Notes under the pieces: model-generated
Seen by the model: only the letters and a program-made list of their open reading frames with translations
What the model was told of the DNA's origin: nothing
Database searches by the model: none
In this document: in pieces, positions 46,402-50,781 of the stretch
Layout: every line of letters starts with the position of its first letter
How positions within the stretch are numbered: the stretch's first letter is position 1
Translations under genes and position numbers: made by a program
Assembly (NCBI GenBank): GCA_038227875.1
Contig: JBBRPR010000017.1
Coordinates: forward strand, 1-64,000
Reading direction: 5' to 3'
DNA length: 64,000 nucleotides
From: Planctomycetota bacterium
GTDB taxonomy: Bacteria; Planctomycetota; SZUA-567; H5-PLA8

Positions 46402-47730
46402 TTACCAGATGATCGGAATGGCGCCACCGTCGTCGACGGAGTAATTCCAGCGTTTCAAATACGTTTCCGCTGGCTGGAAGTCATCGTTGAAGCGCGCCAA
46501 TTCCTGCTTCAATCGCGCGTCCAATTGAGCTTGAAGCGCGGCGCAATCCGGGCGGCCGATGAGATTCGTGAGTTGGTACGGATCGCGTTCGTTGTCGTAG
46601 AGCAGCCAGGGACCGTCCAAATTTCGTGCGTACGTATGCCGGTGCGTGCGCAGTGTCCGCCACGGCAAGCCACGGTACTCGGCAAACGGAGCGATTGCTG
46701 CGGCGAGCGTGGCGTCAGGACCCACAAAGTCGCGGTTCAACACCGCGGCGGAAAGATCCAGACCGTCCACCGTCGACGGCACGGGTACGCCCAGCAGAGA
46801 CAGCAGCGTGGGCATCAGGTCCCAGACATTCAAGAGCGTGTTGACTCGGCTTCCCTTGGTGAATTGCTTCGGTGCACGGATCACAAATGGAACGTTGATG
46901 CTCTCTTCCCACGGATGTTGTTTGCGTTGAACGCCGTGACTGCGCAGCATGTCGCCGTGATCGCTGGTAAAAACAAAAATTGTCTTCTCCAGCTGACCGT
47001 TCTCAGTCAGTCCGCGCACCAGGCGGCCAATCTGTTCGTCCAGCGCTGTGACATGAGCGTAGTAGCCGCGCAACTCGTCCCGGTTGGGATTCGGGCAATT
47101 GGGTCGCACCGGCACGTCGGGCGGGTACAGGTCGAGAAATTCCTTGGGCACCTGATCGTAGGGATTGTGTGGCGGACCCCAGGACAGAAACAGCGCAAAA
47201 GGATCCGCGCCGCTTCGCTTTAAAAAGTCCAGAGCAACATCGGTCTGCGCGCGCGCGTCGTAGCCGTTCCAATGTTTCTTTTCAGTGGAGTCGCCGGAAT
47301 AGTAATGCGACTGCATGTAATTGTGATCGCAGTTGGCGACGGCCCAGAAATCGAATCCCTGGCGCCGCGGTCCGGGCGGCGTATAGGCCGAACGTTCATT
47401 GCCATCCAAATGCCATTTGCCAATGTAGCCGGTGCGGTATCCCGCTTCTTTCAATACGGTGCCGAATGTGGGGCGATCTGTTGGCAGGCGCAAATCGTTG
47501 ATGAACAACCCGTGCCGCAGCGGGTATTGGCCAGTCAGCATGCTCGCACGCCAGGGCGTGCAGACCGGCATGCCCGAAATGCAGTTCACGAATTCCAGTC
47601 CTTCGGCCGCGAGCTTGTCCAAGTTCGGTGAAATCACCGCGCGATTGCCGGAGTATCCCGTGGCTTCCGCGCGCATTTGATCGGCAAAAACAAAGACCAG
47701 ATTGTATTCGGGTCGACTCATCGTGGGCAC
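46402..47730 (-). CDS. Cys-type sulfatase
   Basis: FADQMR, VCTPWRASMLTG (CxPxR), GKWHL, PPHNPY, TSDHG. Confidence 0.93.
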   Translation of the reverse strand: MPTMSRPEYNLVFVFADQMRAEATGYSGNRAVISPNLDKLAAEGLEFVNCISGMPVCTPWRASMLTGQYPLRHGLFINDLRLPTDRPTFGTVLKEAGYRTGYIGKWHLDGNERSAYTPPGPRRQGFDFWAVANCDHNYMQSHYYSGDSTEKKHWNGYDARAQTDVALDFLKRSGADPFALFLSWGPPHNPYDQVPKEFLDLYPPDVPVRPNCPNPNRDELRGYYAHVTALDEQIGRLVRGLTENGQLEKTIFVFTSDHGDMLRSHGVQRKQHPWEESINVPFVIRAPKQFTKGSRVNTLLNVWDLMPTLLSLLGVPVPSTVDGLDLSAAVLNRDFVGPDATLAAAIAPFAEYRGLPWRTLRTHRHTYARNLDGPWLLYDNERDPYQLTNLIGRPDCAALQAQLDARLKQELARFNDDFQPAETYLKRWNYSVDDGGAIPIIW

Positions 47731-47823
47731 CTTTCAACAGTAAACGGCAGTCACGCTCTAATCACTCCACGCGTTGCGCGCAAGTCGCAGTTCCGCGTTC
47801 TTAAAGAACGTTTCACGGAAAAT

Positions 47824-47852
47824 TTGACAGTTTGCTGTTCGTGAGGTTGAAT
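47824..47852 (+). promoter_or_regulatory. Probable sigma-70 promoter of the tyrS leader
   Basis: TTGACA (47824-47829)-17 nt-TTGAAT (47847-47852). Confidence 0.5.
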
Positions 47853-47876
47853 GCCCTGGTCCGAATGGAGATCAAC

Positions 47877-47930
47877 ATGCTACGCGCGTTTTACGGCTAC
47901 GGATATCGATTCAACTCCCCCGTGGCGTAG
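47877..47930 (+). CDS. Tyr-rich attenuator leader peptide MLRAFYGYGYRFNSPVA
   Basis: SD GGAG at 47867-47870; TAC GGC TAC GGA TAT cluster; directly upstream of terminators and tyrS. Confidence 0.8.
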   Translation: MLRAFYGYGYRFNSPVA

Positions 47931-47953
47931 CGCGACTGTTTTGAATTTAGGCG

Positions 47954-47985
47954 AGCCATGGGTATGATCATCCCATGGCTTTTTT
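47954..47985 (+). terminator. Attenuator terminator 1
   Basis: AGCCATGGG-loop-CCCATGGCT followed by TTTTT. Confidence 0.85.
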
Positions 47986-48002
47986 GTTGGCGTAAATAAA
48001 GG

Positions 48003-48039
48003 GGCCATGGGATGCGCGGAAGCGTCTCATGGCCTTTTT
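48003..48039 (+). terminator. Attenuator terminator 2
   Basis: GGCCATGGGATGC-GCGGAA-GCGTCTCATGGCC followed by TTTTT. Confidence 0.8.
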
Positions 48040-48057
48040 AATTGAACGGAGGATGCA

Positions 48058-49365
48058 ATGCTGGGCGATGTCGTTCAGGAATTACGGTGGCGCGGGTTGT
48101 TGCAGCAGATGACCGACGAGACGCTCGAGAAGCGTCTGCTCCAGAATCCATTTACGCTCTACGCCGGTTTCGACCCGACGGCCGACAGCCTCGCGGCGCA
48201 TCACATGATTCCGCTGCTCAATCTCGCCCGCTTCCAGCGCGCCGGGCACAAGCCCATCGCGGTGGTCGGCGGCGGCACGGGGTTCATCGGCGATCCGTCG
48301 GGCAAAACTGAAGAGCGCCAGTTGCTCACCGCGGAGCAGCTTGAGGCCAACGTCGCCGGTCAGCGCAAGCAGATGGAGCGCTTCCTGGATTTCACGCCCG
48401 GTACGGCGCAGGCCTCCGTGCTGAACAACGCCGATTGGCTCTGCGGCATGAACCTGATCACGTACCTGCGCGACGTCGGCAAGCATTTCACGGTCAACTC
48501 GATGCTGGAGAAAGATTCCGTCCGCCGGCGCCTGGAAGATCGCGCACAGGGCATCAGCTACACGGAATTCAGCTACATGCTGCTGCAGGCGTACGATTTT
48601 TATCACCTCTTCAAGCACCACGGGTGCCGGCTGCAGATTGGCGGCAGCGATCAATTCGGCAACATCACCGCCGGCTGCGAATTGATCCGCCGCCGTCGTC
48701 CCGAAACCGAGGCGCATGAGACGTGGGGCGCATACGGTTTGACCACGACCCTGATTACCGATTCCAACGGCGAGAAAATCGGCAAGACCACGAAAGGCGC
48801 GCTGTGGCTGGATCCGAACAAGACGACGCCGTTCGATTTCTACCAGTACTGGATCAACACCAGCGACGCCGACGCCATCAAGTACGTCCGTTACTTCACC
48901 GACGTGAACGAAGCCGACGCGCAAGCCGGCGAGGCCGATCACGCCAAGGACCCGGGCAAGCGTTTGCTGCAGAAGAAGCTCGCCCGCTTCATGACGGAGC
49001 TGGTTCACGGCGTGACGGAACGGGAGAACGCACAGAAGATGACCGACGATCTTTTTACCAAGTCGGTAAAAGACCTCGACGAAGCTGCGCTCTTGAACCT
49101 TGTGAAAGATGCTTCGAGTTCGACACTCTCGCGATCGCGGTTGGAAGGCGAAGGGATGCCAATTATCGAGTTGCTTGCAGAAGCTACCAAACTGTGGGCA
49201 TCAAAGGGCGAGGCGAAGAAGTCGATTCAAGGCAACGGAGCGAATCTCAACGACGTTCGAGTGACTGATCTTCAGAAAAAAGTGACGACGGCTGAGCTGC
49301 TCCATGGCAAGTACTTGGTGCTGCGGAAGGGGAAGAAAGACAATCATCTGGTGAAGGTGGAATGA
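48058..49365 (+). CDS. tyrS: Tyrosine--tRNA ligase
   Basis: YAGFDPTADSL, GDPSGK, EFSYMLLQAYD, QIGGSDQFGNI, KIGKT, S4-like LRKGKK. Confidence 0.97.
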   Translation: MLGDVVQELRWRGLLQQMTDETLEKRLLQNPFTLYAGFDPTADSLAAHHMIPLLNLARFQRAGHKPIAVVGGGTGFIGDPSGKTEERQLLTAEQLEANVAGQRKQMERFLDFTPGTAQASVLNNADWLCGMNLITYLRDVGKHFTVNSMLEKDSVRRRLEDRAQGISYTEFSYMLLQAYDFYHLFKHHGCRLQIGGSDQFGNITAGCELIRRRRPETEAHETWGAYGLTTTLITDSNGEKIGKTTKGALWLDPNKTTPFDFYQYWINTSDADAIKYVRYFTDVNEADAQAGEADHAKDPGKRLLQKKLARFMTELVHGVTERENAQKMTDDLFTKSVKDLDEAALLNLVKDASSSTLSRSRLEGEGMPIIELLAEATKLWASKGEAKKSIQGNGANLNDVRVTDLQKKVTTAELLHGKYLVLRKGKKDNHLVKVE

Positions 49366-49518: not shown

Positions 49519-50781
49519 ATGTCGCTCAACGAATGGCTGGAGTCGGCTCGCGGCGGAAATCTCGACGCCTTTGAACGGCTCATGGATGCGACGCAAGGCA
49601 TGGTCTATGCCGTCGTGCGCCGCATTCTGATCGACCGTGAAGACGCGGCGGATGCCGTTCAGGAGACCTACGTCCGGGCGTTTGGAAAGCTGTCGGAGAT
49701 TCGGAATCCAGACTCCTTTCCGGGATGGCTCAGGCGTATCGCGGTGACGACTGCGATGGGTCTCCAGCGTTCTCGCCGTAACCACTTTGTTGAGTTCGAC
49801 GACGATCTGCACATTCCCATTCTGGACGATCAGGAAACACGCTGGAGCGAATTTCAGCACGCGGCGATGGCAGAAGCCATCGTCAAGCTCGGCGAGAGCG
49901 ACCGGCTGCTGTGTGAACGCTTTTATCACGGCGGCTGGCCCCTGGCGCGACTGGCGGAAGATCTGGAAATTTCGGAAAGCGCCGTGCGCAAACGCCTCCA
50001 GCGCATCCGCGAACACTTGCGAAAGGATATTGAAATGAACGAACAACGAACACTGGCCGGCGAACACCTGCCAGGAAATCTGCCGCGGAAAGTGATTGAG
50101 CTGCTGGCCCGTCCCCGGCTCACCACCATTCCGGAAAATCCGGTGGGCCGCATCTGGCATCTAATCCAATCGCACCTGCCCAAGTCCGTGGACATGGACG
50201 TTTCGGAAACGGTGACCGACGAGCAAGTGCGGGAGATGCTCGGCGACTTATATGACGCCGGTTCTGACATCGGAGGGGGGCAGGGCATTCATCGCGTCGA
50301 CGACGCGCAACACCTCCGCGCCGAAATCACGCTGCCGTTGCTGCTGGCGTGCCGCGGGCGCAGCGGGCCTCAGTCGATCGTGAGCGCTGGGAAAGTCTAC
50401 CGGATTGCGAAAGTCGGACCCGCTCACATGGAATCCTTTCATCAAGGCGAATGGCTGAACGTTAGCGAGTCGGCCTCGCTCTGGGACTCGATGGGCCTGA
50501 TCAGCGGAATGATCAAGGGGCTCTATCCCGACAAGGCGATCCGCTGGGAGAAAGTTCAGCTTCCTCTGTGCGAGGAAGCGTGGGAACTCTTTGTGGACTG
50601 GAACGGCAAGTACGTCGCGGTGCTGGGGTGCGGCCGCTACAAGGATCGGATCGTGGAGTACCTCGGCAACGATCCCCGTCGATTTACCGCTATCGGCGCG
50701 GGCTTCGGTTTGGAGCGCATGGCCTGCGCTCACTTCGGGATCGATGACATTCGCAAGGTGGAGGGAATCCGGCTGAGTTGA
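49519..50781 (+). CDS. ECF sigma-70 factor fused to a PheRS-alpha-like (class IIc aaRS) catalytic domain
   Basis: aa 1-172: DAADAVQETYVRAF, FPGWLRRIA, LAEDLEISESAVRKRLQRIR. C-terminus: GKVYR..H..FHQGE, VLGCG, GFGLERMA..FGIDDIR. Confidence 0.85.
   Translation: MSLNEWLESARGGNLDAFERLMDATQGMVYAVVRRILIDREDAADAVQETYVRAFGKLSEIRNPDSFPGWLRRIAVTTAMGLQRSRRNHFVEFDDDLHIPILDDQETRWSEFQHAAMAEAIVKLGESDRLLCERFYHGGWPLARLAEDLEISESAVRKRLQRIREHLRKDIEMNEQRTLAGEHLPGNLPRKVIELLARPRLTTIPENPVGRIWHLIQSHLPKSVDMDVSETVTDEQVREMLGDLYDAGSDIGGGQGIHRVDDAQHLRAEITLPLLLACRGRSGPQSIVSAGKVYRIAKVGPAHMESFHQGEWLNVSESASLWDSMGLISGMIKGLYPDKAIRWEKVQLPLCEEAWELFVDWNGKYVAVLGCGRYKDRIVEYLGNDPRRFTAIGAGFGLERMACAHFGIDDIRKVEGIRLS

Follow-up and report, generated by a model that had tools for sequence, protein, structure and literature searches.

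A putative tyrosine-codon leader-peptide attenuator with two interlocked terminators upstream of tyrS in a member of the Planctomycetota

Judged from its sequence, the region upstream of the tyrosyl-tRNA synthetase gene tyrS in a genome of the phylum Planctomycetota probably encodes a classical ribosome-mediated (leader-peptide) transcription attenuator, by which the transcription of tyrS would be coupled to the supply of charged tRNA-Tyr. The 5' leader of tyrS carries a short ORF that has a Shine-Dalgarno sequence and a start codon of its own and in which codons for Tyr, the amino acid to which tyrS relates, are clustered. An intrinsic terminator is predicted between this ORF and tyrS, and one of its strands is shared with an antiterminator, with which a helix that overlaps the ORF competes. 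Moreover, the arrangement of the ORF with the same terminator is conserved in relatives, being found in the window, in the metagenome contig L114 and in the genome G014. The window, i.e. the whole stretch of 64,000 nucleotides that was analyzed, derives from contig C17 of a 9.3-Mb metagenome-assembled genome (G000). A single copy of tyrS was found in this assembly, which is 88% complete (one match).

The spacer between tyrS and the preceding sulfatase gene measures 327 nt and holds, in this order, a promoter-like site, a GGAG motif, the leader ORF, a hairpin followed by six Ts, a second hairpin followed by five Ts, a GGAGG motif and the tyrS ATG. No ORF of 60 or more amino acids overlaps the intergenic positions 47738-48041. 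The promoter-like site, the leader ORF and both Shine-Dalgarno sequences were read directly from the sequence; segment 2 was delineated by folding and shuffles, segment 5 by folding, and segments 4 and 6 by folding and a scan for hairpins followed by a T-run. The elements are the following:

46402-47730, minus strand: sulfatase gene that flanks the spacer upstream of tyrS
47824-47852, plus strand: promoter-like site, TTGACA (47824-47829), 17-nt spacer, TTGAAT (47847-47852)
47867-47870, plus strand: Shine-Dalgarno sequence GGAG of the leader ORF, 6 nt before its ATG
47877-47930, plus strand: leader ORF of 17 codons, MLRAFYGYGYRFNSPVA plus TAG (47928-47930)
47883-47902, plus strand: segment 1, over the first and second Tyr codon, pairs with segment 2 (1:2 helix, -19.5 kcal/mol)
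47919-47934, plus strand: segment 2, core CCCGTGGC at 47919-47926, holds the leader stop codon, pairs with segment 1 or 3
47955-47962, plus strand: segment 3, GCCATGGG, either the 5' arm of terminator 1 (with segment 4) or part of the antiterminator (with segment 2); invariant in five of five aligned leaders
47969-47985, plus strand: segment 4, CATCCCATGGC (stem core 47972-47979), with T6 at 47980-47985; 3' arm and U-tract of terminator 1, can pair with segment 5
48003-48015, plus strand: segment 5, GGCCATGGGATGC, 5' arm of terminator 2, 11 perfect pairs with segment 4
48022-48039, plus strand: segment 6, GCGTCTCATGGCC (48022-48034), with T5 at 48035-48039; 3' arm and U-tract of terminator 2
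48048-48052, plus strand: Shine-Dalgarno sequence GGAGG of tyrS
48058-49365, plus strand: tyrS, the regulated gene, encoding a tyrosyl-tRNA synthetase of 435 aa (PF00579 at 3.8e-74; PF22421)

The putative promoter would place the start of the leader transcript near 47859-47861, about 17 nt 5' of the leader ATG. L114 and G014 have an aligned TTGACAG box, and their second hexamers (TACGTT and TACAGT, respectively) fall at the same position as that of the window. The second hexamer of the window (TTGAAT) is weak, and the automated promoter scan, whose rule requires an A at position 2 of that hexamer, did not call the site. Another promoter-like combination, TTGAAT-16-TATGAT, lies inside the leader on the plus strand (47941-47968), where it overlaps the 5' arm and the loop of terminator 1. 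It was treated as a chance occurrence, as shuffles give a mean of 0.6 such sites; a transcript from it would still meet terminator 2.

The ORF directly downstream of tyrS (49519-50781, plus strand) encodes 420 aa, in which an ECF-type sigma factor with the domains Sigma70_r2 and r4 is fused to a class II synthetase core that resembles PheS (PF01409, 7.3e-21). The fusion is widespread: among 8000 scored proteins 929 relatives were found at E <=0.001, and the best 120 of these 929 all have both domains and a length of about 419 aa. The true pheS of the genome is located elsewhere, on contig C23.

The leader ORF contains three Tyr codons (TAC at 47892-94, TAC at 47898-900 and TAT at 47904-06), which give the motif YGYGY, i.e. 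three Tyr within five codons, ahead of the gene that encodes the Tyr synthetase. The original prediction had described a 17-codon ORF at 47877-47930 with a Shine-Dalgarno sequence and Tyr codons, and direct reading bore out both the coordinates and the codons. An alternative in-frame ATG at 47865 would add MEIN to the peptide. Counted against the attenuator reading is that the Tyr codons number only three and are separated by Gly codons.

The leader can be divided into six segments that form a chain, in which either 1:2, 3:4 and 5:6 are paired or 2:3 and 4:5. The 1:2 helix connects 47883-47902 with 47920-47934 and includes the previously claimed core of GCTACGG (47896-47902) with CCGTGGC (47920-47926), which turned out to be part of a longer helix. 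Its probability in the absence of a ribosome is 0.999. The antiterminator 2:3, which had been proposed between segment 2 and 47955-47962, pairs CCCGTGGC (47919-47926) with GCCATGGG and has an energy of -17.4 kcal/mol when a small inner helix is included and of -12.9 kcal/mol for the 8 pairs alone. Terminator 1 (3:4), predicted from sequence as an 8-bp stem with a loop of 9 and a T6 run, consists of GCCATGGG (47955-47962) and CCCATGGC (47972-47979) followed by TTTTTT (47980-47985), at -17.3 kcal/mol; it agrees with the 3:4 terminator with a T-run of the original prediction, and RNA folding, which had been suggested as a check, recovered all three of the 1:2, 2:3 and 3:4 helices. The earlier attenuator reading was nonetheless incomplete, as it had missed a second terminator (48003-48039) and the 4:5 pairing. 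Terminator 2 (5:6) is a predicted 13-bp stem of 48003-48015 with 48022-48034 followed by T5 (-27.2 kcal/mol). In the 4:5 helix (-29.6 kcal/mol) segment 4 and its T-run (47969-47988) pair with segment 5 and the A-rich stretch that precedes it (47995-48014). The energies may be described as balanced, running from 1:2 to 5:6 as -19.5, -17.4, -17.3, -29.6 and -27.2 kcal/mol.

The full leader folds as 1:2, 3:4 and 5:6; when only segments 2 to 5 are folded, 2:3 and 4:5 result. These alternative folds define two registers, one in which both terminators are formed and one in which neither is. The positions of the codons fit such a switch: the Tyr codons lie in or just past segment 1, at least 13 nt ahead of segment 2, and the stop codon lies within segment 2. 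Neither hairpin was listed by the automated terminator scan, which has a maximum loop of 8 and so did not call terminator 1 with its loop of 9; our custom scan for hairpins with a T-run, in which loops of 3-10 and a single mismatch were permitted, recovered both terminators.

A ribosome would load on the 17-codon ORF shortly after the leader transcript has been started some 17 nt upstream of the ATG. With plentiful Tyr-tRNA it would reach the TAG inside segment 2 and thereby mask this segment; if it has already left, 1:2 would form instead. With segment 2 masked or engaged in 1:2, segment 3 would pair with segment 4 and RNA polymerase would terminate at the first T-run, and any polymerase that reads through would next encounter 5:6 with its own T-run. 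Under a shortage of Tyr-tRNA the ribosome should stall at the YGYGY codons and cover segment 1, so that segment 2 stays free. During the stall 2:3 would form before segment 4 is made, after which segment 4 would capture segment 5; neither terminator would form and tyrS would be transcribed. The order of folding is essential to this scheme. In a simulated stall, in which a ribosome masks the third Tyr codon and the RNA reaches as far as the stem of terminator 1, the equilibrium probability of 2:3 is 0.04 and that of 3:4 is 0.96. Since the antiterminator loses at equilibrium, the switch must work kinetically, with 2:3 formed before segment 4 is transcribed. The antiterminator of the E. coli trp leader likewise loses at equilibrium.

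The structures were compared with shuffled sequences and searched for in other data. The fold of the whole leader lies 3.9 sd below that of 200 dinucleotide shuffles, and the 2:3 duplex (-19.8 versus a shuffle mean of -10.9) is reached by only 3 of 2000 shuffles of the spacer, i.e. it beats 1997 of 2000. The segment GCCATGGG occurs 329 times on both strands of the 9.3 Mb, which is fewer than the base composition predicts, and as it is under-represented it is not a repeat family; the hairpin pattern of terminator 1 has a single match in the genome. Contigs of two other studies (X3, 47600-47952; X6, 47720-47870 and 47875-48025) reproduce the leader with 0-2 differences, which argues that it is not an assembly artefact. 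A further matching contig (X5, 47682-47981) comes from the study that is a possible source of the assembly. Natural variants were sought in contigs of four DNA runs: X2 does not reach the leader, and the three that span it (X3, X5 and X6) are the same or almost the same, with no covariation to be read from them. When the stretch 47000-49000 was run against Rfam with cmscan (both strands, E <=10), only two chance matches to miRNA models were obtained, tracing the 4:5 helix. The same scan gave no match to the T-box (RF00230) and none to the amino-acid leader families (Trp, His, Leu, Thr and Phe leaders), and a kinship with the latter is therefore one of mechanism and not of sequence.

How readily such a configuration arises by chance can be gauged from the genome as a whole. 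A scan of G000 for a hairpin with a T-run ahead of genes gave 1889 sites and 224 candidate rows with a leader ORF, mostly noise from Ser/Arg-rich frames. Indeed, GC-rich intergenic DNA abounds in short ORFs and most of the 224 rows are plainly noise, which speaks for the possibility that the leader is an untranslated ORF with three Tyr codons that happens to lie beside two unregulated hairpins. When a Tyr-rich ORF, a terminator and a gene were all required, however, only three sites were left: tyrS, the gene of a DAHP synthase (see below) and one other. The third site, on contig C32, precedes a response-regulator-like gene; after stricter filtering only the tyrS and DAHP synthase leaders look real. 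Together with the shuffle tests, which are significant for the window and for L114, the recurrence of the Tyr-rich ORF in four lineages and the restriction of the hairpin to the region 5' of tyrS among 401 Planctomycetota genomes (both described below), this makes chance the least probable of the explanations that we considered, and one that is already disfavored.

The nearest TyrS among the compared genomes, which include none of the same genus, is 74% identical to that of the window. For a comparison at the family level we used 22 unique upstream regions of genes whose TyrS is at least 55% identical, and searched these for short ORFs in which 3 or more of 7 codons encode Tyr. Such an ORF was found in 4 of the 22 regions and not in the other 18, although Tyr makes up only 1.7% of the codons in all frames of the 22 regions. 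Analogous ORFs rich in another residue were found at 3 loci for K, at 2 each for D and I, at 1 each for C and F, and at none for E, H, M, N, Q or W. The four Tyr-rich ORFs are MLRAFYGYGYRF.. in the window, MRRYCYYYAINIKELSQA in L114 (a contig whose TyrS is 71% identical), ..GNRGYILYYPLSH.. in G014, where the complete ORF reads MRGETGMGNRGYILYYPLSHRGPRPRAR, and MAPFVYAYYRYSC in G004. Their Tyr motifs are YGYGY, YCYYY, YILYY and YAYYRY, and the peptides are otherwise unrelated.

The hairpin was followed in a much larger set. The pattern GCCATGGG N3-12 CCCATGGC N TTTT was found in 4 of 401 Planctomycetota genomes, once in each and always just upstream of tyrS, and a reversed control pattern gave no match in the same 401 genomes. 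Besides the genome of the window these are three genomes of another genus (G014, G006 and G012), and the L114 contig has the pattern as well. L114 and G014 have the same terminator stem as the window, followed by a T6-T7 run, about 30 nt 5' of tyrS, and they share the TTGACAG box with the window too. The stem is invariant in all five aligned leaders, across lineages whose TyrS are 56-71% identical, and each lineage has a loop of its own (UAUGAUCAU, GAGCG, CAGCC and CGCUC). Terminator 2 is absent from the aligned tyrS leaders of the relatives. The original prediction had looked to the leaders of relatives for Tyr codons and for covariation. The Tyr codons were indeed encountered, in four lineages with differing Tyr-rich ORFs; the covariation was not, as a stem that never varies leaves none to be scored.

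L114 and G014 each have an antiterminator of their own against the shared stem. In L114 it is formed by GGAGCUUUCUCAGGCUUA and UAAGCC-AUGGGAGAGC at -28.9, versus -19.4 for the terminator, with the UAA stop codon within segment 2, and it is reached by 27 of 2000 shuffles. That of G014 is weaker (GCCCA-C-GGC) and not significant, being reached by 178 of 2000 shuffles. G006 and G012 have kept the hairpin and have no Tyr-rich ORF, which implies that the hairpin can persist without the sensor.

In view of this distribution the conserved GCCAUGGG/CCCAUGGC hairpin could by itself be the working element, either as a leaky constitutive terminator or as a site to which a protein, for instance TyrRS, binds, and the short ORFs could be incidental. 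Autoregulation by ThrRS in E. coli provides an analogy for the protein site. The invariance of the stem between such diverged lineages exceeds what a plain terminator needs, the hairpin of G006 and G012 does without a Tyr-rich ORF, and equilibrium folding prefers the terminator even under a simulated stall. Against this, loops that vary in every lineage do not mimic an anticodon loop, and Tyr-rich ORFs in 4 of the 22 regions, versus 0-3 for the other rare residues, are hard to call incidental. Moreover, the 2:3 complementarity is significant in both the window and L114, and a constant sequence is to be expected where one segment must pair with two partners; the available text of PMC1262725 says likewise of other attenuators. 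We therefore consider a hairpin that works without the ORF unlikely, and retain the leader-peptide attenuator as the preferred reading.

The fourth Tyr-rich ORF, that of G004, lies about 156 nt 5' of tyrS (L095) and is not followed by a clean intrinsic terminator. In the minimum-energy fold the sequence just past the leader stop pairs with the region of the tyrS Shine-Dalgarno sequence. On the basis of this modeled fold the G004 leader may represent the same sensor in a translational form. Both features of G004 would also suit a scheme in which a leader ORF regulates tyrS without alternative hairpins, through Rho-dependent polarity, translational coupling or masking of the Shine-Dalgarno sequence, and in which the hairpins are ordinary pause or stability elements. 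Yet a GC-rich stem with a T5-T7 run is positioned between the ORF and tyrS in the window, in L114 and in G014, and in the folds predicted for the window the tyrS Shine-Dalgarno sequence remains single-stranded. We hold regulation of this kind to be improbable, even more so than a hairpin that acts by itself, and attenuation by alternative hairpins remains our favored explanation for the window.

The remaining tyrS upstream regions of the family-level set have neither the ORF nor the hairpin. In the TyrS tree the leader is present in both of the main, well-supported clades of the family, which indicates that it is old; as far as the sequences tell, it was probably ancestral in the family and was lost several times. 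GC-rich palindromes (CCCCTCTCCC..GGGAGAGGGG) recur 5' of tyrS in the relatives L003, L005, L007 and L311 and are lacking in the leader of the window. These look like a dispersed REP-like repeat of the family.

Beyond the phylum, Tyr-rich ORFs before tyrS in Flavobacteria and Niabella (MYYFLNYFFL(LF) at -66 and ..DPYYYC.. at -232) were rejected as candidates, being located in AT-rich divergent promoter regions with no hairpin and T-run. The hairpin pattern itself was found at at least 119 loci across the GTDB representatives, where a rough estimate of the chance number is about 11. Among the 119 matches listed two adjoin tyrS, both of them in Planctomycetota, and the others are mostly from Deltaproteobacteria (Syntrophales and relatives; L191-L270 and others). 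In the Deltaproteobacteria the hairpin may serve another gene as a conserved terminator.

A second leader-peptide attenuator was recognized in the same genome, 54 nt upstream of the gene for a class I DAHP synthase on contig C16:

Locus L310, 566-1802: leader-peptide attenuator MGLYFYAYFTFPWRRPGLREAA (ORF 566-634, terminator around 664-696) before the class I DAHP synthase gene (ATG at 744)

Its helices follow the same logic, with CCCTGGC/GCCAGGG for 1:2, CCAGGGCT/AGCCCTGG for 2:3 and a terminator of AGCCCTGG..TCAGGGCT followed by T6. This leader is kept in 10 of the 11 loci of relatives that were examined (G001 is without it), and the helices are conserved. The encoded peptides are always rich in Phe and Tyr and contain one Trp, or three in L318. 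The presence of the leader and its terminator in the genome and in 10 of the 11 loci signifies that the family uses ribosome-mediated attenuation. Inspection by eye of the regions upstream of pheA, tyrA, pheS, trpS and two chorismate-binding genes of G000 revealed no aromatic leader ORF. Just 5' of the pheS gene on C23, after an rplT-like gene, a GC-rich hairpin (GCGGAGTGCGGG..CCCGCATTCCGTGG) is followed by a T7 run that ends 0-3 nt before the pheS ATG; a Phe-rich leader ORF was not seen before this gene.

The two leaders might together constitute a small aromatic regulon that is read by the ribosome. A multivalent Phe/Tyr/Trp leader would gate DAHP synthase, i.e. the entry of the pathway, and a Tyr leader would gate tyrS, i.e. 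the charging of the tRNA. The tyrS leader would have grown into a six-segment relay, where one stalled ribosome flips the whole chain and disarms two serial terminators. As far as could be found, leader-peptide attenuation would thereby be described for the first time in the phylum, and a Tyr-specific case of it for the first time before a synthetase gene. We give this wider proposal even chances of being correct. What is new in the tyrS leader is the amino acid, the target gene and the phylum; the mechanism itself is already known, and the interlocked double terminator is a local elaboration.

The gene regulation of Planctomycetota has been little studied, and a literature search returned no report of attenuators in Planctomycetes. 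A Tyr-codon leader for tyrS fills a gap among the leader-peptide attenuators and extends the mechanism to this phylum. It also implies a coupling of transcription and translation that is close enough for the ribosome to steer the folding of the RNA. Furthermore, the interlocked double terminator constitutes a compact natural relay, in which one sensing event is passed through a chain of helices, and it could possibly serve as a template for tighter synthetic attenuators.

Leader-peptide attenuation is known or predicted for Trp, Phe, His, Leu, Thr and Ile/Val genes and for a few synthetase genes (pheST, and by prediction trpS and leuS), and the known RNA control of tyrS is the T-box. The his operon leader of E. 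coli and Salmonella has six segments as well, with A:B, C:D and E:F as alternatives to B:C and D:E, where only the last helix is known to be a terminator. The tyrS leader resembles it in that the position of the ribosome would set the register of all downstream helices in a six-segment chain. It differs in that the middle helix (3:4) also has a T-run, which yields two terminators.

The original prediction had stated that a Tyr-codon leader for tyrS was not known to be characterized, and no published case was found in the literature; the survey of attenuators of amino-acid and synthetase operons by Lopatovskaya et al. (2010), cited in PMC4833913, could hold a prior prediction. In the available text of PMC1262725 the genes for tyrosine are listed as T-box regulated and no attenuator of tyrS is reported. 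The pheM-pheST system of E. coli is an established case of leader-peptide attenuation of an aminoacyl-tRNA synthetase operon, according to the excerpts of PMC1262725 and PMC11802643. The shared design consists of a short ORF rich in cognate codons, followed by an intrinsic terminator, before the synthetase gene for that amino acid. The differences are that the window has Tyr instead of Phe, a class I synthetase, a host from the Planctomycetota and two serial terminators, and that there is no similarity in sequence (no match to an Rfam leader). The classical attenuators that Seliverstov et al. (2005) predicted for trpS and leuS of Streptomyces, as presented in the consulted part of PMC1262725, are likewise leader-peptide attenuators identified by computation before synthetase genes outside the proteobacteria; the amino acid and the phylum differ from those of the window.

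For the DAHP synthase leader on C16 an analogue is provided by aroR, which precedes the DAHP synthase gene aroF in Corynebacterium glutamicum (Neshat et al. 2014, as related in excerpts of PMC11802643). It is an aromatic-rich peptide with a Phe-Tyr-Phe motif before a DAHP synthase gene, in this case in the Actinobacteria, and it responded to Phe and not to Tyr. That its Tyr codons were without an effect of the Tyr supply, as the same excerpts have it, calls for caution in reading specificity from codons alone. A counterpart with respect to the gene itself is the tyrS of Bacillus subtilis, which has a T-box leader (PMC2879506). Both systems concern the same gene, both would provide more tyrS at low levels of charged tRNA-Tyr, and both rely on a choice between a terminator and an antiterminator. 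The T-box, however, senses the uncharged tRNA directly, via a specifier codon and the T-box sequence and with no translation involved.
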